Source of the DNA: Pseudomonas phage PAShipCat1
Sequence record: PP067092.1
Reading direction: 5' to 3' (one strand)
Length of the DNA stretch: 50,602 nucleotides
Below, piece by piece: positions 3,768 through 37,751 of this stretch (positions are counted from its first letter, which is position 1; every line of letters begins with the position of its first letter). A model generated the notes under the pieces. That model worked only from the letters and a program-made list of their open reading frames with translations, was not told where the DNA came from and searched no databases. The position numbers and the translations under genes are program-made.

Positions 3768-4520
3768 ATGCATCAGATTATCCACGGCAATACCGAAACC
3801 GTCGTTCCGAAAAATGCGAACCACGACTTCGTGGCACGCAAAATGAGCACCCTCAAGCTGCGCGATCTCATCAATGATGCCCGCGCGGATGCTGGGGAGC
3901 CCAGGGTCAGGAATGATCAGTTTCTTGCTCGTGTCGAAGACGAGTTGGGTGATGAACTTGAGGGGGTGCAAAAATATTACACCCCCTTCCATGGCAACCA
4001 AGTCGCCGCCTACGACCTGACTCTTGACCAGTGCGTGCTGGTAGGGATGCGCGAATCTAAGTCGGTTCGCCGAACGGTATTGGCCAAACTGAAGTCCTTC
4101 GAGGCCCCTCGTGTTATTGCCACGCTCCCAGACTTCACCAACCCAGTAGTGGCAGCCCGCGCTTGGGCGGATGAGGTGGAGCAGAAACAGGTGGCCCAGC
4201 AAGCACTGGCGATTGCTGCGCCCAAAGCAGAGTTTGTCGACAAGTATGTCGAATCCACCGGGCTCAAGGGCTTTCGCCAAACCGCCAAGCTGCTGAGGGC
4301 CAATGAGGCCCGATTCCGTGAGTTCTTGCTCGACAAGAAGATCATGTATCGCATGGGCGGCGAGTGGCAGGCATACCAGAACCATATCGACGCTGGACGC
4401 TTCGCCGTCAAGACCGGCACAAGCGACAGCGGTCACGCCTTCAATCAAGCCAAATTTACCCCTAAGGGCGTCACCTGGGTGGCCGGCTTGTGGGCGCAGC
4501 ACAACCTGGAGGTCCAATGA
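3768..4520 (+). CDS. antirepressor-like protein (Rha-type N-terminal domain + KilA-C/ANT C-terminal domain)
   Basis: N-terminal MSTLKLRDLINDARADAGEPRVRNDQFLARVEDELG is Rha-like. C-terminal ...AARAWADEVEQKQ...EFVDKYVESTGL...FREFL... is KilAC-like. The opposite-strand ORF 3765..4532 is rejected as a shadow. Confidence 0.7.
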   Translation: MHQIIHGNTETVVPKNANHDFVARKMSTLKLRDLINDARADAGEPRVRNDQFLARVEDELGDELEGVQKYYTPFHGNQVAAYDLTLDQCVLVGMRESKSVRRTVLAKLKSFEAPRVIATLPDFTNPVVAARAWADEVEQKQVAQQALAIAAPKAEFVDKYVESTGLKGFRQTAKLLRANEARFREFLLDKKIMYRMGGEWQAYQNHIDAGRFAVKTGTSDSGHAFNQAKFTPKGVTWVAGLWAQHNLEVQ

Positions 4521-5326
4521 TGGCCCGTTCAAGAAACATCAAGCCAGGGTTCTTTTCGAACGAGCATCTGGTGGAGCTGGACTTTGCAACTCGCCTCCTG
4601 TTCATCGGCCTTTGGACCGAGGCTGACCGGGAGGGTCGCCTCGAAGATCGCCCGCGCCGACTGAAAATGGCCTTGTTCCCGGCTGACAATGTCGACATGG
4701 ACCGAATGCTCGATGACCTTGATCACTTGGGGTTCATCAAGCGCTACACCGTGGGCGACGTGAAGGCCATTCAGATCATCAACTGGTCGAAACACCAGAA
4801 TCCGCACGTCAAGGAAGCCAAGAGCATCATCCCTGAAATGCCCGAGGTAGACGCATGCAAGGGAAAGAATGAGGAAAGCACCGTGCAAGCACCGGACTCG
4901 CACAGTTCTTTCCCTGCTGATTCCCTCTCTCTTGATTCCGGATTCCTGATTCCTGATTCCCTCAACCCGTCGCAAGCTCCGGTTGACCGCGCAGAGATGT
5001 TCTCGCGGTTCTGGAAGCTGTATCCGCGAAAGGTAGGGAAGGACAAGGCCGAGAAGGCGTGGGCGAAGCTGAAGCTCACTGCCGACCTGTTTGACACGAT
5101 CGTCAGCGCCCTGGCCAGGCACCGGCAGTTGCCCAGTTGGACCAAGGACAACGGGCAGTTCATCCCGCATGCATCGACATGGCTCAACGGGAAGCGCTGG
5201 GAGGATGAGATTGACCTTCCGCGCGGCAATGTCCACCACCTACCAAGCAGCCGCCACCACGGGTTTGCTGATCGCGACTACACCGCAGGCTTGATCGAGC
5301 GGGAGGACGGCACCTATGGCTTCTAA
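4520..5326 (+). CDS. replication initiation protein (lambda O-like replisome organiser)
   Basis: ATGA overlap with preceding gene. N-terminal winged-helix-like region. C-terminal FSRFWKLYPRKVGKDKAEKAWAKL...TWLNGKRWEDE motif. Directly upstream of DnaC-like gene. Confidence 0.6.
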   Translation: MARSRNIKPGFFSNEHLVELDFATRLLFIGLWTEADREGRLEDRPRRLKMALFPADNVDMDRMLDDLDHLGFIKRYTVGDVKAIQIINWSKHQNPHVKEAKSIIPEMPEVDACKGKNEESTVQAPDSHSSFPADSLSLDSGFLIPDSLNPSQAPVDRAEMFSRFWKLYPRKVGKDKAEKAWAKLKLTADLFDTIVSALARHRQLPSWTKDNGQFIPHASTWLNGKRWEDEIDLPRGNVHHLPSSRHHGFADRDYTAGLIEREDGTYGF

Positions 5327-6392: not shown

Positions 6393-6604
6393 AGACCTTC
6401 GAACTGATCCGCATGGAAGGCCTGCGCACCTACGGTCGCCAGATTGAGGCCAATACCTGGCGCGAAGCCGAGATGCAATGCCGCGACGGCGAGATCGTAA
6501 ACGGCGAACTGATCGGTGTGTACGACTGTGACCCGGTAACTGAGGCCGTCTGCACTGCGCGCAATGACGTGATGATTGATAGCTTGGGGGTGTGCTGTGG
6601 CTGA
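6389..6604 (+). CDS. hypothetical protein (71 aa)
   Basis: ORF track. ATGA overlap with neighbours. Confidence 0.45.
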   Translation: MKTFELIRMEGLRTYGRQIEANTWREAEMQCRDGEIVNGELIGVYDCDPVTEAVCTARNDVMIDSLGVCCG

Positions 6605-7013
6605 CCGCACTTTCCGCATCCAAGGCGCTGCCGGCATCCGTCCGGCTTTCGTCGCGGCCTGGAACCTCATCCAGGGGCTGATGAAAGAAGCACAGGGTGG
6701 CTACGAGCTGGTTCTACGCCCTCTCAAGTCGAAGCGCTCCATTGAGCAGAACAAGCGGTACTGGTCCCTTCTGCGCGAGCTGGCCGCCGTCGCCTGGGTC
6801 GACAACCGCCAGTTCGACGATCAGGTCTGGCACGAACAGTTCAAGCGCTGGTTCATCGGCTGCGAGGACGTGAAGTTGCCGGACGGCTCGACCGAGTTGC
6901 GCGGCATCAGCACCACGAAGCTGACCGTAGACGAGTTTGGAATCTACATGACCAAGATCGAAGCGTGGGCCGCCGAGCAAGGGTGGCCGCTGATGATGCA
7001 GGAGGTCGCATGA
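6597..7013 (+). CDS. ninB: NinB-like recombination protein (lambda Orf family)
   Basis: SIEQNKRYWSLLRELA vs lambda NinB SLDQNRKLWACLGDVS. GISTTKLTVDEFGIYMTKIEAWAAEQGWPL vs lambda GQSTSRMRVGEFAELLELIQAFGTERGVKW. Probable GTG start at 6597 inside track ORF 6576..7013. Confidence 0.75.
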   Translation: MADRTFRIQGAAGIRPAFVAAWNLIQGLMKEAQGGYELVLRPLKSKRSIEQNKRYWSLLRELAAVAWVDNRQFDDQVWHEQFKRWFIGCEDVKLPDGSTELRGISTTKLTVDEFGIYMTKIEAWAAEQGWPLMMQEVA

Positions 7014-7273
7014 GCAAGTTCAAGGCGGGCGATCTCGCTCTTAATCTGCAAGACATCCCCAGCTGCATCAGTGCGGGAGTGGTAGTCGAGTTGATGTCTC
7101 GACTTGCCCCTGGTGATCTGTTTGCCGAAGACGGCCAGACCTTTCAGGTGATTCGGCCAGCTTGGTGGGTGCTCCATGAAGGAGACCGGCTCTACATACC
7201 TGAACGGTATCTCATGCCCCTGCGCGGCGACTTCCAGCCCGAGCAGCAGAAGGCGAAGGGGGTGGAGGCATGA
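7010..7273 (+). CDS. hypothetical nin-region protein (87 aa)
   Basis: ATG overlapping ninB stop (ATGA). Track ORF 6965..7273 trimmed to this start. Confidence 0.45.
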   Translation: MSKFKAGDLALNLQDIPSCISAGVVVELMSRLAPGDLFAEDGQTFQVIRPAWWVLHEGDRLYIPERYLMPLRGDFQPEQQKAKGVEA

Positions 7274-7518
7274 AGTTCTGGACTTGGCTAAAGCGCTTCG
7301 CCGAACGCAAGGAGCGCCAGGCTTGGCTTGAAACGCGATATAGCGACCAGATGTGTCCGCATTGCAACACTTGGCAGGGCAACTGCGGTGGCTGGGTGGA
7401 ATCGGTTGAGGTCGATCAGATGCATGACCGCCTGACGTGCGGGAGGTGTGGGCAGCATTCAACTTGGTTCATGGGGGGCCCGGTTTTGATCCTTGTAGAT
7501 CCCAAGGTGACGGCATGA
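7270..7518 (+). CDS. hypothetical zinc-finger protein (82 aa, CPHC...CGRCGQH)
   Basis: ORF track. ATGA overlaps. Confidence 0.45.
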   Translation: MKFWTWLKRFAERKERQAWLETRYSDQMCPHCNTWQGNCGGWVESVEVDQMHDRLTCGRCGQHSTWFMGGPVLILVDPKVTA

Positions 7519-8096
7519 CGCTTTCCACCAGCCAGCCCAAGCCCCGCAAGTGCAAGAACCCTGAGTGCGGCACCACGTTCGTCCCTCAGCGCCTCGGGCA
7601 GCGCGTCTGCTCGCCGGCATGCGCCCTGGCCATCAAGGACAAGCACGCCAAGCCGGCGCGGAAGGCCATCGCTGACCGCGAGCGGAGGGAGATCAAGGTT
7701 CGGAAGGAGAGGCTGAAGAGTCGGGCGGATCACCTGCGCGAGGCTCAGCAGGCGTTCAACGAGTTCATTCGCCTGCGCGACGCCGACCAGCCGTGCATCA
7801 GTTGTGGCCGCCACCACGATGGGCAGTACCACGCCGGGCACTACCGCACGGTTGCCGCCAGCCCAGAACTTCGCTTCGAGCCGCTCAACGTCCACAAGCA
7901 GTGCGCTCCATGCAACAACCACAAATCAGGCGACATCGTGAACTACCGGATCAATCTGGTGCGCAAGATCGGCGCCGAGAAAGTTGAGTGGCTGGAAGGC
8001 CATCATGAGCCACTGAAACTGACCATTGAAGAAATCAAAGCACTGAAGGCCAAGTTCCGGGCCTGGGTGCGAGAACTGAAGAGGAAGACCGCCTAA
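7515..8096 (+). CDS. ninG: NinG (Rap)-like recombination-associated protein
   Basis: Strong match to lambda NinG: KPRKCKNPECGTTF... / QQAFNEFIRLRDADQPCISCG...HAGHYRTVAASPELRFEPLNVHKQCAPCNNHKSGDIVNYR vs lambda [21 protein letters not shown]...[40 protein letters not shown]. Confidence 0.85.
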   Translation: MTLSTSQPKPRKCKNPECGTTFVPQRLGQRVCSPACALAIKDKHAKPARKAIADRERREIKVRKERLKSRADHLREAQQAFNEFIRLRDADQPCISCGRHHDGQYHAGHYRTVAASPELRFEPLNVHKQCAPCNNHKSGDIVNYRINLVRKIGAEKVEWLEGHHEPLKLTIEEIKALKAKFRAWVRELKRKTA

Positions 8097-9206: not shown

Positions 9207-9267
9207 GTGACAAATTCGCCTCTGGCGAAAGTCACCACCGAAGCCCTGGCATCTGCCGGGGCTTTTT
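9207..9267 (+). terminator. late leader: 11-bp hairpin (9207-9235) followed by intrinsic terminator (9242-9267), tR'-like
   Basis: GTGACAAATTCGCC-TCT-GGCGAAAGTCAC hairpin, then AGCCCTGGC-ATCT-GCCGGGGCT stem followed by TTTTT. Confidence 0.5.
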
Positions 9268-9434
9268 CGTTTCCGGGGCATGGATGAATCTCGAGCATCG
9301 CATAAGACGCTGGCTTCTTCAGGCTGAGCGACGTGGCAAGCCGATCCACGCAATTCTCATCCACCCCGACGATATCCAATCTGCAAGAAAGATCTGCCGG
9401 TTCGCGCCAGTAAAGGTGCTCGGCATTGAAGTAC

Positions 9435-9510
9435 GCCGGTATGGCGCAACAGGGAGCGCTGCTGATTTGTAATCAGAGGGTTGCGGGTTCGACTCCTGCT
9501 GCCGGCACCA
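9435..9510 (+). tRNA. tRNA-Thr (anticodon UGU), phage-encoded, with encoded CCA
   Basis: Manual fold: acceptor GCCGGTA/TGCCGGC (one G-U). U8. D-arm GCGC-AACAGGGA-GCGC with G18G19. Anticodon arm GCTGA-TTTGTAA-TCAGA (U33, TGT, A37). 5-nt variable loop. T-arm GCGGG-TTCGACT-CCTGC (T54 T55 C56). Discriminator A, CCA. Confidence 0.8.
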
Positions 9511-9518
9511 CACTACAA

Positions 9519-9546
9519 GGCCCAGGCAATGACCTGGGCTTTTCTG
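9519..9546 (+). terminator. intrinsic terminator downstream of tRNA
   Basis: GCCCAGG-CAATGA-CCTGGGC followed by TTTTCT. Confidence 0.6.
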
Positions 9547-9562
9547 CATCTGGAGTAAGCAA

Positions 9563-9895
9563 ATGGACCCGATGACGACCGTTGGCGGAGGTCTCTTCGC
9601 CAAGTACAGCGTCGCTATTGCCGGGTTCTGGGGGTCTATTCTGTCCCTTGGATTCCTGAGCGGCCTGAACCGCTGGCAAGCCGCGCTCGCTGTAGCAACC
9701 GGATTCGGGTGCTCAACCTATTGGACTGCTCCGGTTGCCGCATGGCTTTCGCGTGAGTACGAGATTCCACTCGATGACGCATTTCTGAGTGGTGTCGCAT
9801 TCACCATTGGTTTGCTGGCGATGAATATCATCCCCGGCCTGAAGGCGGCAGTAACGGCAATCACAGAGCGGTTCCTTCCTACGAGAGGAACCTGA
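9563..9895 (+). CDS. holin-like membrane protein (3 TM, charged C-terminus)
   Basis: 110 aa. Three hydrophobic helices and a basic/charged tail KAAVTAITERFLPTRGT. First gene after late leader. Confidence 0.5.
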   Translation: MDPMTTVGGGLFAKYSVAIAGFWGSILSLGFLSGLNRWQAALAVATGFGCSTYWTAPVAAWLSREYEIPLDDAFLSGVAFTIGLLAMNIIPGLKAAVTAITERFLPTRGT

Positions 9896-9897
9896 TC

Positions 9898-10170
9898 ATG
9901 ATCATGTCGATTCTGGCGGCGCTGGATGCGCTGCTGTGTGTGCTTGTCGTTGTAGCTGCTCTGGAGTTCCTGCGCACCGTCCAGCTGTCTGGGCAGCCGC
10001 TATTGGGTATCTCCTTCTACCTGGTGGCAGGTGGTGCATTCGGAATCCTGTACGGAATCATGAAGGGCGCACCGGTTAATCCATTTTCGGTGATCCTCCA
10101 TGCTGGGCTCGTACTTTACGCCTGGTCCCGGCGCCGGCAGATATTCGGAAGCGACTGGTCGTGGAACTGA
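9898..10170 (+). CDS. small membrane protein (2 TM), possible holin/antiholin partner
   Basis: 90 aa. Two TM segments. C-terminal RRRQIF. Confidence 0.4.
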   Translation: MIMSILAALDALLCVLVVVAALEFLRTVQLSGQPLLGISFYLVAGGAFGILYGIMKGAPVNPFSVILHAGLVLYAWSRRRQIFGSDWSWN

Positions 10171-28589: not shown

Positions 28590-30749
28590 ATGACGACTTA
28601 CGCCACCGGCAACCCGCTTGGCTCCAAAGACACCCGTGACCTCTACGACAACACCGAAAACTTCGACGCAGCGATGAACGACCGCGCGAATGTTTCTTGG
28701 AATGACCGATTTGGCGTCTCTAGAAAAACCTGGTTTGGAGTCGAACAGCAGGTCAACGACTTCCTCGCCGCCCAGGGATACGAGGCCGTCGTTCTGGAGT
28801 ACGCCGACGGCTCCCCGTTGACAGTAGACCGCTCGACCCAACTCATCGAGCGGGATGGGATTCTGTATAGCGTCAAGCGCCCTGCATCGTTCCCCCTCGA
28901 GCTGACCGGCAACTGGTCAACCGACCAGAGCCTGCTGGTGCTCCAGGTGGATCAGGGGTTCCCCGAGGAAATCGGTCGCGGTGTCCGCCGGGTCGACTCG
29001 GTTGCCGTCCTGCGGACCATCGAAGGGCGATTTGCCGGGGATTCCGCGCTTGTTGTCGGGTACTACGCCGAGACTCCGGGGATCGGCGGTGGGGAGTTTC
29101 ATTGGGACTCGACCGCGACCGAGGACGACAACGGCGGATCGATCATCCAGGCAACTGGAATCACAACTGGCCGCTGGAAGCGCGATATCACCCATGGCGT
29201 TTGGGCCGAGTGGTTCGGGGCTCGCAATGACGGCACGGATGCGGCAGGAACTACTGCTGCGGTCTGGGCTGCAATCATCGCACTCCGGCACGACCCGGAG
29301 ACAATCGTGCAGTACATCGGCGGTCCAACTGTCACAGCGTATGCATCCGGGCGACTGAACTTCGGCAGCGGGGTATTTGCACTCCAGCCTGATAGTTTCG
29401 ATATTACCCAGGACCTCGGCCTGACCATCGTCGGGCAGGGATTCAGAGGTAAGAACCAGGCGATGAAGGCGGCTACCACGTTGCTCTGCAAGGGAGTTTC
29501 AAGTGGATTTTTCTTCCGCCACTACGGGAATGGCGCCCGTAATCTGACATTCAAAGATATGGATGTCGTATATGAGAACTCGGATTTCACTGGAGACATA
29601 GTTGAGAGCCTTACATCTCCCGGCTTGACGCTTGAGAGGACTAGGCTTGGCTGCTATGGCGGGCTTCTTGGAACTCGCGTTCAAACCGCGAGAAGCTGTA
29701 TCCGACCAACGTTCGACGAATTTTTGCGTTGCGAAGACGTTGTGTTTGATGGCGCTCAGAATGGCTTTTGGTCGGATGGTGCGCGGACAGTTCCGGGTCT
29801 GTCTTTTGGTGGGTGGGGTACGACCCTTATGAACTGTACGTTTTATGATATTGCCAATGTCATGATACATCATGCAGCTAATAGAGGTAGAAGCATTGTT
29901 AATGTAATTGGGTGTGCGTTCAATCCTATCAATATAAGTCCTGCTAGGTGTTTTGACATTACCAACATTGAGGGAATCAATGTGACCGGAAATCAATTTA
30001 CACCAAGCACGGGAAACCAGCCAACGCAAGAATGGATTAGGCTTCTAGGTAGCACTGGCGCTATAGATGGGAATACGTTTTCAGGCCCATCCTCAAAGCT
30101 CGGAACCATTGGAGGCGTAGATCCTTCGTCAATCAGGTTCTCTAACAATAGGGTATCCTGCCAAGGTGGTCTTGTAGTATCCGGAGGAATTTTTACAGGC
30201 TCTGGAAACGAATATTCTATAGCTGATCATGGAGTTGACGTATCGCCAGTGGCTATTACTACTCTTGATATTGGTCCTGATATTTTCAAGTCTGGAGTAT
30301 CTGGGAACTCATATCGCATCTCTGCGGATAGCTCCCTTCTTGGCGGGAGAATTAACTACATATTTGAGCAGGATAACTCAAATAGTAAGTTTTCAAATGT
30401 TTCCTCAAGGGTCTCAATTGATAATGTTGATAGGAGAATATCTACTATAGGCTCTCTCCCATCTACCGCGTCTCCGTATTTTAGCGGAAGAACCTATAAT
30501 GTTACCGTTGCGGGTACATTCACATTGCCCACTCCAATTCCGGGAATTAGATTGAGAGTAATGAAAAGCACAGCGACGGCACTGACAGTATCTACCACAT
30601 CCGGCTCGAATATTCTTGTCGGTGCCCGTTCGGCAAGAACCTCTGCCGTTGCGACAGCCGCCGAGATTGGGCCAGCAATTGAGTTTGTTGCTTTTAGCTC
30701 TGCATCATGGGTGGCGCAAGTCCTGTCAGGGTCTTGGTCATTCAGCTAG
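28590..30749 (+). CDS. tailspike / tail fibre protein with right-handed beta-helix-like C-terminal receptor-binding domain
   Basis: 719 aa. N-terminal ~290 aa at genome GC. C-terminal ~430 aa at ~42% GC with repetitive G/N/S/T-rich beta-helix-like segments. Confidence 0.7.
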   Translation: MTTYATGNPLGSKDTRDLYDNTENFDAAMNDRANVSWNDRFGVSRKTWFGVEQQVNDFLAAQGYEAVVLEYADGSPLTVDRSTQLIERDGILYSVKRPASFPLELTGNWSTDQSLLVLQVDQGFPEEIGRGVRRVDSVAVLRTIEGRFAGDSALVVGYYAETPGIGGGEFHWDSTATEDDNGGSIIQATGITTGRWKRDITHGVWAEWFGARNDGTDAAGTTAAVWAAIIALRHDPETIVQYIGGPTVTAYASGRLNFGSGVFALQPDSFDITQDLGLTIVGQGFRGKNQAMKAATTLLCKGVSSGFFFRHYGNGARNLTFKDMDVVYENSDFTGDIVESLTSPGLTLERTRLGCYGGLLGTRVQTARSCIRPTFDEFLRCEDVVFDGAQNGFWSDGARTVPGLSFGGWGTTLMNCTFYDIANVMIHHAANRGRSIVNVIGCAFNPINISPARCFDITNIEGINVTGNQFTPSTGNQPTQEWIRLLGSTGAIDGNTFSGPSSKLGTIGGVDPSSIRFSNNRVSCQGGLVVSGGIFTGSGNEYSIADHGVDVSPVAITTLDIGPDIFKSGVSGNSYRISADSSLLGGRINYIFEQDNSNSKFSNVSSRVSIDNVDRRISTIGSLPSTASPYFSGRTYNVTVAGTFTLPTPIPGIRLRVMKSTATALTVSTTSGSNILVGARSARTSAVATAAEIGPAIEFVAFSSASWVAQVLSGSWSFS

Positions 30750-32678
30750 TCAACCCCCTGTTACTGGCAGGTCTTTTAGAAATACATCACCAAGTCCGAC
30801 TGATTTTAAATAGTCGGACCTGCGTGATGCTATGTCTTTCATAACAGAGATCAAGAACGTTGCCGTCATGTGGTTCGCGTCAGTAATGAATGGGACTCCG
30901 CTCGCATCATACGGACAAGAACCTAAGATAGAGCAGACAAGCTCTTTTACGTCGATGTATGTATATGGGGCTCTCATTCTCGAAGAGTATTTCCCATATG
31001 GTTCGCTGCCATCATAGGTTGCGGCATCTATACAGGATTTTGCTGAATTTTTCGATATGAACATTGTGGATAGGCATGATTGCTTTTTATCTACATCAAG
31101 TTGGAAGTAGTTGCCAAATACGTATAGGTCGGCTCCGGTTTCATTCTTTAGCTTCTTATACAGATCAAACCTGTACATGTTGTATCTGTAGGAGAAAGGT
31201 CTGTGTGAAACGATGAATATCTTCTCTGTAGAGTCTAGCAGCTTTCTATCGCTAGTGACTTTTGAGAATGTTTCGCAGTTCTCTGTATATCGAGATTCTG
31301 TCGGGGATGCTTTCAGGGATTTGGAAATATCACTGAACTTGCACCCTAAATAGCTTACGGAAATTACGCGATAGCGGCTTTTATCTACTTGGCTTGAAAT
31401 CCCTATGGACCAGTTAGTTAGATAGGAGTCGCCAACTATAAGTACCACTGGTTTATCGCTTTGCGGGTCAGTATCTTCTATAAAAAGCTTTCTATTAGCG
31501 TTCTCTATTAGCTGAGAATTAATGCTGTAGACGCTATCAAGTCTTTCCGGGAATCCTTCCTTTACATAGCCATACGACGCTACAGATATGAGCGTAACAA
31601 TAGCAATCGCTGTAGACGCTATAGGTCGCTTACCTAGGGCGCTGGCCCCGTTGCGCACAGGTTTTTCGACTAGCCGGTAACTCAAGATAGAAAGCAAAAG
31701 CGTGAAGGAAATCGCAATCGCAGAGTGCTCTGCTGATAGCTCTCCAAAGCTGCGGAGTTTGAAGATTGCCAGTATTGGCTGGTGCCACAAATAAGCGCTA
31801 TAGCTGATCAGGCCAATCATTACGAATGGCCTAGAACTGAGAATGACTCCAACCAGAGTACGCGGACCGGTGGCAGCAATGATCAGAGCAGTCCCAATCA
31901 CAGGCAGCGCGGCATTGATGCCTGGGAATGGTGTCTGCTCGTTATAAGCTAGTATGGCGTATACGATCATCGATAGGCCGGATAACGACAGTGCTTGATT
32001 AAGCGGCCCTGACGATATCGGCGCCGTTCTGCGTAGCAGGTAGAGCGCGGTTAGTGAGCCGACAAGCAATTCCCAGGCGCGTGCTGGCAGCATATAGAAT
32101 GACATCATTGGATCAGTAGCCAGATAGTGCTCAGCAAACCACATGCTGGCAGCTACCAAGGCCAAGGTAATGACGGCGAACCATGCGCGCCCTAGTCGCC
32201 AGACGGCCATCACCAGCAACGGAAAAACAATGTAGTACTGCTCCTCTACTGCAAGGCTCCATGTGTGAATAAGAGGTTTGAGCGTTGTTGCCGTATCCCA
32301 ATATCCAGACTCATACCAAAACAGGATGTTGGATGAGAACGTTGCAGTGGCCGCGATGCTTGAGAAATAACTTTTCAGTTCTTCTGGAGGCAAAAACACC
32401 CACGCCAACGGCATTGTTGCAAGTATCACCACGAATAGCGCAGGCATAATCCTCTTGGCGCGTCTTTGGTAGAACTTGATTATACTTATACCGCCGCGTT
32501 CTTGATCCTTAATAAGAATCGTGGTTATCAAAAATCCACTTATTACAAAGAAAACATCAACTCCAACAAATCCTCCAGAGAATGACTTAAATCCGGCATG
32601 AAAAAGAATGACCGACAAAACTGCAATAGCGCGGAGTCCGTCTATCTCTGGTCGATATTTAACAGTTGGATTACTCAT
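30750..32678 (-). CDS. O-antigen acyltransferase (acyltransferase family 3, OafA/Oac-like, with C-terminal SGNH-type domain)
   Basis: N-terminal EIDGLRAIAVLSVILFHAG...GGFVGVDVFFVISGFLIT...RRAKRIMPALF...HTWSLAVEEQYYIVFPLL is AT3 family. C-terminal VVLIVGDSYLTNW GDS motif. Multiple TM helices. ~40% GC. Confidence 0.85.
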   Translation of the reverse strand: MSNPTVKYRPEIDGLRAIAVLSVILFHAGFKSFSGGFVGVDVFFVISGFLITTILIKDQERGGISIIKFYQRRAKRIMPALFVVILATMPLAWVFLPPEELKSYFSSIAATATFSSNILFWYESGYWDTATTLKPLIHTWSLAVEEQYYIVFPLLVMAVWRLGRAWFAVITLALVAASMWFAEHYLATDPMMSFYMLPARAWELLVGSLTALYLLRRTAPISSGPLNQALSLSGLSMIVYAILAYNEQTPFPGINAALPVIGTALIIAATGPRTLVGVILSSRPFVMIGLISYSAYLWHQPILAIFKLRSFGELSAEHSAIAISFTLLLSILSYRLVEKPVRNGASALGKRPIASTAIAIVTLISVASYGYVKEGFPERLDSVYSINSQLIENANRKLFIEDTDPQSDKPVVLIVGDSYLTNWSIGISSQVDKSRYRVISVSYLGCKFSDISKSLKASPTESRYTENCETFSKVTSDRKLLDSTEKIFIVSHRPFSYRYNMYRFDLYKKLKNETGADLYVFGNYFQLDVDKKQSCLSTMFISKNSAKSCIDAATYDGSEPYGKYSSRMRAPYTYIDVKELVCSILGSCPYDASGVPFITDANHMTATFLISVMKDIASRRSDYLKSVGLGDVFLKDLPVTGG

Positions 32679-32792
32679 AACATACCTGTCGTTGTGTTCA
32701 TCTGCCTGTTACAGCGGCGCCGATCATACCCAATTGGAGCGGGACATGCCCACTCCCGAGCGCCGGCCAGCAAGCCGGCGCCGGGCTGATGG

Positions 32793-33653
32793 TTAGCGGA
32801 TGCTGAGATCAGAGTATTGATTGAGCCCAAGCCGCCTCTGTACGGCATCGAACTCGCCGTCGAAATCCTTCCTGAGCTGCCAGACGCCCATGTAGCCATC
32901 CTTGAAGTGGTCGATCATCTCCACCCCGGCGCGGGAACCGTGCTGCCTCAAGAAATAGTAAAGGCTGTGCCGCTTGAAGATTTCGTACAGGTACTGGAAG
33001 TGGTGGCAGACGAAGTACACATCATAGAGCTGGTGGTCGTTGAGCATGGTGCCGCAGCGTTTTTCAGGCTTCGGCAGCCATTCTCCTTCGTGAACGCTGT
33101 AGGCAGCGACGAAGTTGCGGGCCGCATCCAACTGATTGGCGGGGATGTCTGTGGCAGACCGAACCCCGAAAGCGGCATGGGTCTGTGACCAGATTTTCAT
33201 GGTGGCTCGCCGGCGGACTTCGACGGGGAGGGCGGCTACCTTGCCCTTGATCAGCGAGCCGAGCATGTGGAAGCCGTCGGTACCTATGGTTTCGCCAACC
33301 AGGGTTGCCATCTTGTTGCTGGAGTCCTCATAGCGACCATGCTTGCGAATCGCAGGCAGCACCTCGGCGGTTACCCACTTCTTGAAGCGCTTGGCTTCGG
33401 CCTTGCGGCTGCGCAGGATCGCCGAGTACAGCCCAGACTCGTTGATGACCAGCATTTCCTGATCACCGCCAGGGGTGGGCAGAATCTGCCTACCCTTTTC
33501 GTCATCGTCCAGATTCCGCGCCATATCCTTTGCAGTCAGGTACTGGAGAGCAGAGGCGATATCGGCAGCAACGAACCATGGCTGGTCGTCGATCAGCATG
33601 GTGCGGACTTCGCGAGCGTCGAACTGGAACGGAATTACTTGAGCGGTTTGCAT
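32793..33653 (-). CDS. Bro-N domain protein (antirepressor-like)
   Basis: N-terminal VIPFQFDAREVRTMLIDDQPWFVAADIASALQY is a canonical Bro-N/KilA-N signature. Confidence 0.7.
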   Translation of the reverse strand: MQTAQVIPFQFDAREVRTMLIDDQPWFVAADIASALQYLTAKDMARNLDDDEKGRQILPTPGGDQEMLVINESGLYSAILRSRKAEAKRFKKWVTAEVLPAIRKHGRYEDSSNKMATLVGETIGTDGFHMLGSLIKGKVAALPVEVRRRATMKIWSQTHAAFGVRSATDIPANQLDAARNFVAAYSVHEGEWLPKPEKRCGTMLNDHQLYDVYFVCHHFQYLYEIFKRHSLYYFLRQHGSRAGVEMIDHFKDGYMGVWQLRKDFDGEFDAVQRRLGLNQYSDLSIR

Positions 33654-35010: not shown

Positions 35011-35445
35011 ATGCGTACATCCCAACGAGGCATAGACCTCATCAAATCGTTCGAGGGCCTGCGCCTGTCCGCCTATCAGGACTCGGTGGGTGTCTGGACC
35101 ATTGGCTACGGCACCACGCGAGGCGTCACCCGCTACATGACGATCACCGTCGAGCAGGCCGAGCGGATGCTGTCGAACGACATTCAGCGCTTCGAGCCAG
35201 AGCTGGGCAAGCTGGTGAAAGTGGCGCTGAACCAGAACCAGTGGGACGCCCTGATGAGCTTCGTGTACAACCTGGGCGCGGCCAATCTGGCGTCGTCCAC
35301 GCTGCTCAAGCTGCTGAACAGGGGGGACTACCAGGGAGCAGCGGACCAGTTCTCGCGATGGGTGAATGCCGGAGGAAAGCGACTGGGGGGCCTGGTTAAG
35401 CGCCGAGCGGCGGAACGTGTCCTGTTCCTGGAGCCACTATCGTGA
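35011..35445 (+). CDS. endolysin, GH24 phage lysozyme (T4 E / lambda R-type fold family)
   Basis: GIDLIKSFEGLRLSAYQDSVGVWTIGYGTT is the hallmark GH24 catalytic-region motif. Confidence 0.9.
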   Translation: MRTSQRGIDLIKSFEGLRLSAYQDSVGVWTIGYGTTRGVTRYMTITVEQAERMLSNDIQRFEPELGKLVKVALNQNQWDALMSFVYNLGAANLASSTLLKLLNRGDYQGAADQFSRWVNAGGKRLGGLVKRRAAERVLFLEPLS

Positions 35446-35810
35446 TCCCCTGGCGCTGGGTAACCATCGCGCTGGCCTGCCTGCTACTGCTTGGCCTCGG
35501 CACCGCCGGCGGTGTCTGGCTCGGCGCACGGCACTACCGGCCGAAGGTCGATGCCGCGTTGGCGGATCTGGTCGCCTGCCGCGCCGCCAGGGGAGGCCTG
35601 GAGGACGCAGTGGCGGAGCAGGTCCGGCAGGTTGCCGCGCTGCGCATGGCCGGCGAGCAGCGCGCCCGGGATGCTGTACAGGCGATGGAGAGGGGCCGGC
35701 AGCAGGCCGCCGAGCAGTATGCCGGAGCCCAGCGCCTGCTGAGCCAGCGAACCGCTGGTGATCAGTGCCTGGCAGCCGAAGTGGTCATCGATCAGGAGTT
35801 GGGGCTATGA
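35442..35810 (+). CDS. i-spanin (Rz-like)
   Basis: N-terminal TM (WVTIALACLLLLGLGTAGGVWL) then coiled-coil periplasmic domain. ATGA overlap with lysozyme. Confidence 0.7.
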   Translation: MIPWRWVTIALACLLLLGLGTAGGVWLGARHYRPKVDAALADLVACRAARGGLEDAVAEQVRQVAALRMAGEQRARDAVQAMERGRQQAAEQYAGAQRLLSQRTAGDQCLAAEVVIDQELGL

Positions 35811-36070
35811 GGGTGGTGCTGATGTTGGTGATGGTCGCGCTGGCGGGATGCGCCGGCCAGGTGGAGCCTGAGCCGCGCACGGTGCGCGTAGAAGTGCCAG
35901 TGGCGGTGCCGTGCCGGGTGCCGGCGGTGGAGGTGCCGGCTTGGGCAACTACTGGGCTGCGAAAAGGCGACGACTTGCAGACCAAGGTCCGCGCGTTGCT
36001 CGCCGAACGCTTGCAGCGGATCGGTTACGAGGCGCAGCTCCTGGCTGCGAATCAGGCCTGTCAGGATTAG
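35807..36070 (+). CDS. o-spanin (Rz1-like lipoprotein), separate gene overlapping Rz by 4 nt
   Basis: MRVVLMLVMVALAGCAGQ signal with LAGC lipobox. Pro-rich. Internal ATG in track ORF 35765..36070. Confidence 0.7.
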   Translation: MRVVLMLVMVALAGCAGQVEPEPRTVRVEVPVAVPCRVPAVEVPAWATTGLRKGDDLQTKVRALLAERLQRIGYEAQLLAANQACQD

Positions 36071-36369: not shown

Positions 36370-36590
36370 CCCTGTACCAGTTTTTGTACCAATCGATGCG
36401 AATTCTGGCGAATAATGGTGCCTGAAAGCCGTGATTCTACTGCTCTCCAGCGCGCTAGCTATCGCCAAAAAAATCGCATGGTGATGTTAGCTGTAGATAT
36501 CAAGGCATTGTCCTGCGGGGCTTTGCGGGATGGTTACGCGCCTTCCTCTGCTTCCTGTACCAATTCCGTACCAGTTTTAACCCTGGTCTG
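36370..36590. other. candidate attP region (arm-type direct repeats + IHF-like site), overlapping integrase 3' end
   Basis: GTACCA-N5-GTACCA at 36375-36391 and GTACCA-N6-GTACCA at 36556-36573. IHF consensus-like TATCAAGGCATTG at 36498-36510. A-tract 36465-36471. Adjacent to int 3' end as in lambda. Confidence 0.45.
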
Positions 36591-37751
36591 TAGCTTCTCC
36601 AGCTCGCTCCAATCCGAGGCGGAGTTCAGCCACTTGGCATAGGTCGATAGCAGCATCTGCACGCTGTGGCCTAGCTGCCCAGCGATAAACGCAGGGTTCA
36701 TGCCAGCCATCAGGCACATGGTCGCGTATGTGTGGCGGGTGTCGTACTGCCGGCGCCTTCGGATGGATAGAGCATCCAGCGCGGCGTGGAAGTGCTTTAT
36801 GGTAACACTTGGCTCCTTGATCCACAGCCCGCCCTTGCTCGGAGGGAACACGAAGGGGCTTACTGCGAACTCGGAGACGGAGGCGACGCGCTTCAGCCGA
36901 GCAATCCGCTTGGCCTCTGCCAGGGCATTCAGGGCGCGTTCGTTGAGCAGGACGTCGCGTTCGTGCTTGGTCTTTACACGCTCTTCGATTCCGCGATCTA
37001 TGACGATCCGGCACACATGGATGCGCCGGGCCTCCTCGTCTACCTCGTCCCATCGAAGGGCGAACGCTTCTCCTGGCCGCAACCCTGTGAAGAACAGAAA
37101 CTCGTACAGCGCGGCGTAGATCCTTGAGTACTTCCCAAGGGTCGCGTACAGGTGTTGGATGATGCGTTCTGCTTCGTCCCTGGTGAAAGGGTCCACCAGC
37201 TTCTTCGAAACCCTCGGCTTCTCAAGAGGCGCCATCGGGTTCTTCTTGATCAGCCCGTCCTTCACAGCGGAATCTAGGATCGTCGACAGCTTGAACATCG
37301 CGTTCCGCTTCACGCCTGGCGACGTCCACTCGATGCTGCTGATGATTCGGCGCAAGAGGGTAGGGGTGATCTGGTCAAGCCGGGCTACTGCAAGATGTGG
37401 CATCCAGTATTGGTTGAGGATGCTCTTGTAGTTCTTGCGTGTCCCAAGCACGATCTCTCGACTGTCTAGCCAGAGTTGCGCATGCTCACCGAACAGAGGG
37501 ATTTGGCTGCTGACCGATTCCGCAATCGCAGAACCCGGGAAGAACTCTGCATACTTGGCTTCGTCCATGATGCCAAGCTTGATGGCCTGGACTACCTGAT
37601 CTCTAAGACTGGATGCAGTCTTAATCCCTTTTTGCGTCGCGGGATAGGGGAGTGTTTCGCACTTCCTTGTTCCGTTCCACATGAAGCGGATACGGATAGA
37701 GTTGCCGATGACTTCCACCCCGGTGGGCATACCCAAAGGCTTTCGAGCCAT
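36534..37751 (-). CDS. int: tyrosine integrase (lambda Int-like with N-terminal arm-binding domain)
   Basis: N-terminal GVEVIGNSIRIRFMWNG. Catalytic R (GLRPGEA), HxxR (DTRHTYAT) and Y (LLSTYAKW). Confidence 0.9.
   Translation of the reverse strand: MARKPLGMPTGVEVIGNSIRIRFMWNGTRKCETLPYPATQKGIKTASSLRDQVVQAIKLGIMDEAKYAEFFPGSAIAESVSSQIPLFGEHAQLWLDSREIVLGTRKNYKSILNQYWMPHLAVARLDQITPTLLRRIISSIEWTSPGVKRNAMFKLSTILDSAVKDGLIKKNPMAPLEKPRVSKKLVDPFTRDEAERIIQHLYATLGKYSRIYAALYEFLFFTGLRPGEAFALRWDEVDEEARRIHVCRIVIDRGIEERVKTKHERDVLLNERALNALAEAKRIARLKRVASVSEFAVSPFVFPPSKGGLWIKEPSVTIKHFHAALDALSIRRRRQYDTRHTYATMCLMAGMNPAFIAGQLGHSVQMLLSTYAKWLNSASDWSELEKLQTRVKTGTELVQEAEEGA

Follow-up and report, generated by a model that had tools for sequence, protein, structure and literature searches.

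A tailspike and O-antigen acetylase cassette with a probable role in serotype conversion and self-exclusion in Pseudomonas phage PAShipCat1

Temperate phages that carry a tailspike together with an O-antigen acetylase are already known, the arrangement being established for BTP1, Sf6, D3 and JBD44. The receptor of the Pseudomonas aeruginosa phage JBD44 is the O-antigen, and its plaque halos have been linked to its spike, gp39. Two further proteins, gp40-41, are reported to acetylate the O-antigen and to keep lysogens from re-adsorbing progeny; their deletion lowers the free phage of lysogen cultures ~10^4-fold and leaves the induced burst unaffected. In Salmonella phage BTP1, OafB acetylates the rhamnose of the O-antigen, blocks the rhamnosidase spike of BTP1 and protects lysogens from that phage. 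The O10 and O19 antigens of P. aeruginosa have one backbone, and their only difference is a 2-O-acetyl group on L-rhamnose. The enzymes involved come in mechanistically parallel forms: AT3-SGNH proteins, which acylate many glycans, and MBOAT proteins acting with AlgX, each comprising a membrane acyl carrier and a periplasmic SGNH-like transferase. A spike and AT3-SGNH gene pair has already been annotated in the podophages Ab31 and YA3, and the authors of YA3 proposed that this phage may convert serotype. Here we describe the corresponding pair in Pseudomonas phage PAShipCat1, where a tailspike gene and a convergent AT3-SGNH acyltransferase gene occupy an island of low guanine plus cytosine (GC) content. 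The window analysed is the whole 50,602-nucleotide (nt) stretch of record PP067092.1.

Both genes are as a sequence-only reading of this DNA had described them, with open reading frames (ORFs) at 28590-30749 (forward) and 30750-32678 (reverse). That reading placed the two stop codons 1 nt apart, from coordinates that were off by one; in fact the codons abut (TAG 30747-30749, TCA 30750-30752, 0 nt between). The locus is divided as follows, GC3 being the GC content of third codon positions and aa denoting amino acids.

28590-30749, forward strand: tailspike of 719 aa (WVW38023.1), assigned from the ORF, an AF2 structure model, Foldseek, PHROG tail families and an exact NCBI protein.
28590-29163, forward strand: spike aa 1-191, siphophage-specific virion anchor and neck, outside the mobile cassette (GC 60.9%, GC3 0.75).
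29164-29459, forward strand: spike aa 192-290, conserved joint and left homology arm, still high-GC, common to siphophage and podophage spikes and to both cassette types.
29460-30749, forward strand: spike aa 291-719, low-GC, the probable receptor-binding and predicted depolymerase part of allele A (GC 47%, GC3 0.42).
30750-32678, reverse strand: AT3-SGNH O-acyltransferase of 642 aa, assigned from Pfam, PHROG, motifs and homologues.
32679-32713, reverse strand: cassette-specific 5′ leader of the acyltransferase gene, conserved with loci L008 and L009 and differing from the leader of the MBOAT cassette.
32714-32752, reverse strand: conserved promoter block and right homology arm, common to AT3-SGNH and MBOAT cassettes.
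32753-32792, no strand: right flank, with the breakpoint at 32752/32753 placed by homology comparison.

The gene identities, the fold of the spike, the catalytic motifs of the enzyme, the transfer of the block, the pairing of alleles and the conserved arms are each demonstrated in the comparisons that follow. Relatives were taken from a survey of ~20 loci, drawn from contigs encoding the proteins and from tblastn of phage records, and are given L numbers. With JBD44 gp40-41 and Salmonella BTP1 GtrC/OafB as functional analogues, we consider it likely that the pair is a receptor-recognition and receptor-modification cassette that gives PAShipCat1 serotype conversion and self-exclusion. The sequence-only reading had seen in the pairing of spike and acylating enzyme the logic of serotype conversion and exclusion, a view for which JBD44 offers experimental precedent at the same locus.

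No Pfam domain was matched in the spike using a local Pfam copy, and a precomputed label (PF27114, 'Phage_tail_beta') was uninformative; the fold was taken from structure prediction. The AF2 model (pLDDT 87.3) has a right-handed β-helix at ~aa 234-600 and a C-terminal β domain at aa 601-719. Its best Foldseek matches were the tailspike depolymerases CBA120 TSP2, Acinetobacter Fri1 gp49 and Klebsiella Depo32 (E 1e-10 to 1e-8), with a probability of 1.00 against these three and K2-2 TSP, and phmmer matched the neck region to 6c72. As modelled, the protein is a β-helix tailspike with an N-terminal particle-binding module and a C-terminal domain, aa 291-719 being probably the receptor-binding part, with glycan cleavage predicted. 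Five acidic residues (D325, E377, D387, D396, D420) are invariant in 27 homologues. The suggestion in the sequence-only reading that the spike might deacetylate its receptor is unlikely to hold, because the fold is that of a β-helix depolymerase and the model contains no esterase domain; an esterase spike was rejected on these grounds.

Conservation along the spike changes in two steps. The anchor and neck (aa 1-191) are 82-83% identical to JBD44 and JBD88b, 78% to BUCT566 and 57% to P54, with the podophage YA3 matching at 42% over 77 aa only. The joint (aa 192-290) is 96-99% identical in aa sequence among PAShipCat1, YA3, JBD44 and L014, and its core (29250-29459, spike codons ~221-290) is 93-100% identical among the same four in 30-nt bins. 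Beyond it, aa 291-719 are 98-99% identical to YA3 and Ab31, 65-69% to JBD44 gp39, 63% to L008 and L009 and 46% to the Pseudomonas putida prophage L011. The C-terminal domain, which had been read as 'swapped', is instead a divergent allelic form of the domain in JBD44 gp39. Between PAShipCat1 and YA3 the spike shows 28 synonymous and 10 non-synonymous changes, with no sign of positive selection. Clustering of spike alleles by acetylation partner was not supported for the β-helix (allele A to allele B 69%, allele A to the AT3-partnered L008 and L009 63-64%) and is weakly suggested for aa 601-719 (55% versus 61-63%).

The acyltransferase comprises an AT3 domain (PF01757, E 1.3e-31, aa 10-334, full profile covered) and an SGNH domain (PF19040, E 8.6e-14, aa 406-607). 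By a hydropathy scan alone, the AT3 domain is followed by a hydrophobic 19-mer (aa 353-371), which aligns with the matching segment of BTP1 GtrC and is a candidate for the eleventh transmembrane helix that sets the SGNH domain in the periplasm in this family. The R-x10-H motif of transmembrane helix 1 (TM1) and the RxxR motif of TM3 are the catalytic motifs that define the AT3 family (OafA/OafB). Both are present (R16-x10-H27; R73-A-K-R76), as are the GDS (G416-D-S418) and DxxH (D600xxH603) motifs. Residues R16, R72, R73, R76, G416, S418, D600 and H603 are invariant in 21 homologues, down to 30% identity, and H27 is conserved in at least 90%. The protein matches PHROG 6705 'O-antigen acetylase' (1.5e-219) and is 34% identical to BTP1 GtrC/OafB (E 2e-79) through the AT3 domain, the extra helix and the GDS motif. 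Further homologues are the PAJU2 acetylase (46% identical) and D3 Oac (34%). A search of PDB with phmmer gave no match for the acyltransferase; a homologue profile reached the solved OafB SGNH structure 6SE1 (E 4e-6). The enzyme is thus, by sequence, a member of the O-antigen acetylase branch of AT3-SGNH proteins (OafA/OafB/GtrC-II type) with its catalytic motifs kept. Homology (PHROG 6705, D3 Oac, BTP1 GtrC) and genomic position suggest that it acetylates the O-antigen.

On infection, the virion spike would bind, and probably cleave, the O10/O19-type O-specific antigen of PA14-like hosts; PAShipCat1, YA3, Ab31 and the Flu_PA14 phages all have PA14 or O10 strains as hosts and narrow host ranges. 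In the lysogen the acetyltransferase would be transcribed from its own promoter, its AT3 domain would carry acetyl groups across the inner membrane and its periplasmic SGNH domain would transfer them to the O-antigen. Acetylated O-antigen would no longer be a substrate that the cognate spike can engage, so that lysogens would cease to adsorb PAShipCat1 and their own released progeny (superinfection exclusion, the 'anti-Kronos' effect) and would change serological subtype.

The promoter block contains the one promoter-like match upstream of the acyltransferase gene, which is sigma-70-like: TGGGCA (32752-32747), an 18-nt spacer with the palindrome CCAATTGG, and TATGAT (32728-32723), followed by GCGCCGC. 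The 39 bp of this block are 95% identical upstream of the MBOAT gene in JBD44 and JBD88b, and the block is also found in YA3, Ab31, L014, L018 and L020-L026. A -10-like element lies in an equal position in L008, L009, L011 and PAJU2, and cassette-specific sequence begins just past it. The leaders of the AT3-SGNH genes of PAShipCat1, L008 and L009 are conserved up to an ACAGGTA(T/A)GTT-ATG start region. They also contain a short stem with compensatory changes (GCCGCC...GGCGGC in L008, GCTGC...GCAGC in L009) that is weaker in PAShipCat1. In YA3, JBD44, L018 and L020-L026 the -35-like hexamer is directly preceded by 26 nt (GATATGCAGCAACTGCTGCTCAGTGA, with the palindrome GCAGCA-AC-TGCTGC), which are absent in PAShipCat1. 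The right flank holds a GC-rich hairpin at 32760-32781 (GCGCCGGC-CAGCAA-GCCGGCGC), 3′ of the neighbouring Bro gene. At the other end of the acyltransferase gene, a consensus scan combined with folding against shuffles detected no terminator at the junction with the spike in either direction, as the sequence-only reading had stated. The sole hairpin near the junction is at 30757-30771; this candidate (forward) and that at 30584-30571 (reverse) were rejected, as both fold like shuffled sequence (z 0.0 to +1.35).

Spike alleles and acetylation systems are strictly paired across the ~20 loci and on both backbones. Allele A always occurs with AT3-SGNH, on siphophage backbones in PAShipCat1, L018, L021-L023, L025 and L026 and on podophage backbones in YA3, Ab31, L013 and L024. 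Allele B, the JBD44 type, always occurs with an AlgX-like protein and MBOAT, on siphophage backbones in JBD44, JBD88b, L019 and L020 and on a podophage backbone in L014, whose left part is 91% YA3-like and which is 97.9% JBD44-like from spike aa ~157 on. More distant pairs are also retained. In L008 (a metagenomic locus with siphophage tail genes) and L009 the spike C-terminus is 63% and the AT3-SGNH protein 74% identical to those of PAShipCat1, the genes are tail-to-tail and their stops abut (TGATCA). L009, a 24.5-kb Logan contig (SRR22387941), encodes Baseplate_J, sheath-initiator, wedge and collar genes and is of contractile-tail (myovirus) type; its pair lies 3′ of the terminase genes, not 3′ of the baseplate genes. 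In the P. putida prophage L011 the spike is 46%, AlgX 65% and MBOAT 81% identical to their counterparts. A profile built from a nine-sequence alignment found three viral loci only and none in a one-genome-per-species collection.

The strictness of this pairing, the persistence of the abutting stops in other tail contexts where spike and acetylase have diverged to 63% and 74% identity, and the effect of deleting the equivalent JBD44 genes on that phage's own progeny all speak against the most durable alternative. In that account the slot 3′ of the spike is a hot spot at which accessory genes (morons) recombine, and the acetylase, its specificity unmatched to the spike, is kept for a benefit to the host, such as resistance to serum, escape from antibodies or a defence against other phages or pyocins. 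The cargo of the slot does vary: BUCT566 has a different spike with Wzy-like polymerase genes there, P54 only a spike and L010 holins; unrelated spikes adjoin AT3-SGNH genes in PAJU2 and D14O, and conserved flanks would make any insert mobile. As regards the features of a moron, deviant composition is present and a promoter is plausible; a terminator was not found, the acyltransferase gene abutting the spike stop and the sequence there folding like shuffles. We regard the moron explanation as unlikely.

Several points weigh against a cassette for serotype conversion and self-exclusion. Resistant mutants in the Ab31 study did not clearly implicate O-antigen genes, and literature searches found no direct experimental test of the YA3, Ab31 or PAShipCat1 acetylase. 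The promoter is a 9/12 consensus match, and the region has no more matches of this kind than chance would give. Moreover, with the loss of the 26 nt a regulator site may be gone, so that expression of the acetylase could differ in PAShipCat1. Pairing is not obligatory, because L010 and L015 carry a 57%-identical spike that is followed by holins and has no acetylase beside it. One strain (CP173152.1, GCA_051016185.1) carries both cassette types as two prophages, L020 at 3.33 Mb (JBD44-type, spike B with AlgX and MBOAT) and L026 at 2.21 Mb (PAShipCat1-type, spike A with AT3-SGNH and Bro), and exclusion between the two types is therefore at best incomplete. Finally, GenBank record HG798806 names the Ab31 homologue a peptidoglycan O-acetyltransferase. 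That name would suit an enzyme aimed at another glycan unrelated to the receptor of the spike (peptidoglycan in the manner of OatA, the common polysaccharide antigen, Psl or alginate), as would the breadth of glycans acylated by the AT3-SGNH family and an SGNH region only weakly similar to OafB. However, the best family match is the O-antigen acetylase PHROG, its nearest relatives among characterised proteins (D3 Oac and BTP1 GtrC/OafB) act on the O-antigen and come from phages that convert serotype, and the gene sits in the position of the O-antigen-acetylating genes of JBD44. A target other than the O-antigen is accordingly rather improbable.

The composition of the cassette departs sharply from that of the genome. 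On recalculation the dip noted in the sequence-only reading proved real, GC being 46.5% in 29460-32752 (3293 nt) against a mean of 60.1% in same-length windows elsewhere (standard deviation 1.9, minimum 56.7, z = -7.2), and the island contains all four of the genome's lowest-GC 500-nt windows. GC3 falls from 0.75 in spike aa 1-191 to 0.65 in aa 192-290 and 0.42 in aa 291-719, and is 0.48 in the acyltransferase gene, compared with 0.74 in the neighbouring J-like and Bro genes. The drop at ~29450 was accurately placed. Identity to JBD44 is 100% across 29400-29459, then 73% and 50% from 29460; over JBD44 gp39 more widely, nucleotide identity is 80-100% to 29459 (aa 290) and abruptly 50-75% beyond. 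On the right, homology to YA3 and Ab31 stops at 32752 and homology to the siphophage P54, which stops on the left at 28918, resumes from 32753. These identity and homology breakpoints identify the low-GC island as the allele-specific part, 29460 to ~32713.

However, the block shared with podophages begins ~300 bp before the GC drop, so that the drop itself was correctly positioned and the left limit of the block was not. The span 29164-32752 (spike aa 192-719, the whole acetylase gene and 74 bp upstream) matches YA3 and Ab31 at 98.9% identity, breaks off sharply at both ends, and is also present at 98-99% in the Flu_PA14 podophages and Komp_PA14_gP. Outside the cassette the PAShipCat1 genome is that of a 99% JBD88b/DO4-like siphophage. 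The earlier proposal that the spike's C-terminal portion and the acyltransferase form one exchanged block is borne out by this identity and by recurrence of the pair in diverged form. Of 39 nucleotide differences from YA3, 37 fall in 29167-30016, inside the opening 853 nt of the shared block; the acetylase gene (1,929 nt) has none. This indicates very recent common ancestry of the 3′ part. Within the joint, 29190-29249 is 97-100% identical to L014 and 80-83% to YA3 and JBD44, pointing to finer mosaicism. Homologous recombination in two arms, spike codons ~221-290 on one side and the ~40-75 bp promoter block on the other, moves the unit between tail types.

Since the block is 98.9% identical, and the acetylase gene identical, in a podophage, another phage of P. 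aeruginosa served as the immediate donor. Cassettes of relatives have 46-54% GC inside phages of 56-63% GC, the locus being low-GC in JBD44, JBD88b, P54, BUCT566, PAJU2, L008, L009 and L011. Because all diverged cassettes are low-GC, this composition is old and maintained and is not a signature of recent import. The exact acetylase protein occurs in 320 blocks of a public assembly index, for which the named cluster members and places that were read are all P. aeruginosa; it is therefore widespread among P. aeruginosa assemblies, and identical cassettes are present as prophages in many genomes of this species. Direct import into PAShipCat1 from a low-GC organism, as the sequence-only reading proposed, is thus very improbable, notwithstanding the contrast in GC and GC3 with the genome and one spike homologue recorded from Paenibacillus.

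A broader possibility, which we put forward tentatively, is that the O10/O19-antigen phages maintain a dedicated cassette-exchange system in which two fixed arms shuttle spike and acetylase pairs, alleles A and B being orthogonal. As part of the same tentative proposal the chassis would be siphophage, podophage and probably myophage, with flanking HNH/EndoVII genes possibly helping. Orthogonality of the pairs would follow if the A and B systems acetylate different positions and each blocks only the spike that it accompanies, and this would explain the double lysogens; if true, such pairs would create O10/O19 subtypes outside the current serotyping scheme. Free-standing HNH/endonuclease-VII-like genes that might promote exchange flank the spike cassette in several relatives, either separating the J-like gene from the spike or lying just past the acetylase promoter.

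L021, 4125-4856: endonuclease gene.
L019, L020, L023 and L026, ~4013-4858 or 9232-10077: endonuclease genes.
L010, 8887-9591: endonuclease gene.

PAShipCat1 has only 60 bp between the J-like gene and the spike and no endonuclease gene at the cassette. In JBD44 (L002) the ~960-bp gap between the J-like gene and gp39 (6530-7491) has a GC content of 37-39% and matches the position of a 281-aa endonuclease-like ORF in L019 and L020; the JBD44 record shows a 50-aa ORF only. A different kind of change is seen in the Ab31-like L007 (vB_Pae_HB2107-3I, 6579-7991), in which the acyltransferase is cut to its C-terminal SGNH part of 278 aa, the integrase is truncated too and an ISL3 transposase lies nearby. 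L007 is probably a deletion derivative without lysogeny and conversion functions.

PAShipCat1 itself was obtained from sewage with P. aeruginosa PA14 as the host of isolation. It is a siphophage of the JBD44/JBD88b type, its structural region being 99.2% identical to JBD88b and DO4 and 98% to JBD44. Two genes to the right of the cassette belong to this backbone.

32793-33653, reverse strand: Bro-N antirepressor, flanking backbone outside the cassette (Pfam PF02498, 5.7e-24).
36534-37751, reverse strand: tyrosine integrase (Pfam PF00589, PF12167, PF22022).

The integrase, together with the description of the phage as lysogenic, indicates that PAShipCat1 is temperate, the state that lysogenic conversion needs. 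The Bro neighbour is also found beside the PAJU2 acetylase (46% identical) and in prophage L026. Elsewhere in the window, a tRNA-Thr (TGT) gene is encoded at 9435-9510, and a GC peak of 69-74% at 35300-35900 forms the opposite compositional extreme to the low-GC island. This peak overlaps small ORFs that probably encode lysis accessory proteins or spanins and lie 3′ of the lysozyme gene (35011-35445).

In a cassette of serotype conversion and self-exclusion, the two genes would set which P. aeruginosa strains these temperate phages adsorb to and how the surface of the lysogen changes. Part of the O10/O19 serological split could be due to the acetylase, and so could some of the natural resistance that O10-type clinical strains show to phages dependent on the O-antigen, which bears on phage therapy and O-antigen vaccines. 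For moving this receptor-binding domain between tail types, the joint at spike aa 221-290 offers a graft point that is natural and proven, and two analogous systems on sister spikes offer a natural experiment on the function of AT3-SGNH versus MBOAT with SGNH. A known principle is here extended to a specific, testable case, and current concepts are unchanged.

Among known systems, JBD44 gp39-40-41 belongs to the same lineage and lies at the same locus, 3′ of the J-like gene and before the lysis and antirepressor genes. The two spikes are homologous from end to end, at 99% in aa 192-290 and 65-69% in aa 291-719; both phages have convergent modification genes, the common promoter block and a low-GC cassette, and both grow on PA14. 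However, JBD44 carries MBOAT (gp41) with an AlgX-like SGNH protein (gp40), where PAShipCat1 has a single AT3-SGNH fusion, and BLASTP with the JBD44 proteins as queries found no match to gp40 or gp41 at the PAShipCat1 locus. The two acetylation systems are analogous, not homologous; of the two, that of JBD44 alone has been tested experimentally.

Ab31 (vB_PaeP_Tr60_Ab31, ORF17/18) and YA3 (vB_PaeP_YA3, gp19/gp20) are closest in the cassette itself, with spike aa 192-719 at 98-99%, the acetylase at 98-100%, and the same abutting stops and upstream region. They differ in their podovirus-type N-terminal anchor and 783-aa spike, as against a siphophage anchor and 719 aa in PAShipCat1, and in having an integrase as right neighbour in place of the Bro antirepressor. 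Salmonella BTP1, placed here with the P22-like and Sf6-type serotype converters, is likewise a temperate phage in which a tailspike gene is followed by a convergent AT3-SGNH O-antigen acetylase gene, the enzyme (GtrC/OafB) being 34% identical; OafB acetylates O-antigen rhamnose, and the acetyl group that defines O10 is also on L-rhamnose. However, its spike has no sequence similarity to that of PAShipCat1, its host and O-antigen are different, its genes are separated by a 39-bp gap in place of abutting stops, and gtrA is present.

D3 (iap, wzy-beta, oac) and its Detrevirus relatives PAJU2 and D14O are also temperate P. aeruginosa siphophages that modify the O-antigen. PAJU2 and D14O share the order of J-like gene, spike and convergent AT3-SGNH, and PAJU2 has the same Bro neighbour. 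Their spike receptor-binding domains are nevertheless unrelated to that of PAShipCat1, their acetylases are 34-47% identical, and D3 also alters the polymerase linkage. New relative to all of these are the presence of the YA3/Ab31 cassette on a siphophage anchor, the two-by-two pattern in which each of two cassettes occurs on each of two backbones between defined homology arms, and the partnership of sister spikes with acetylation systems of two analogous kinds.

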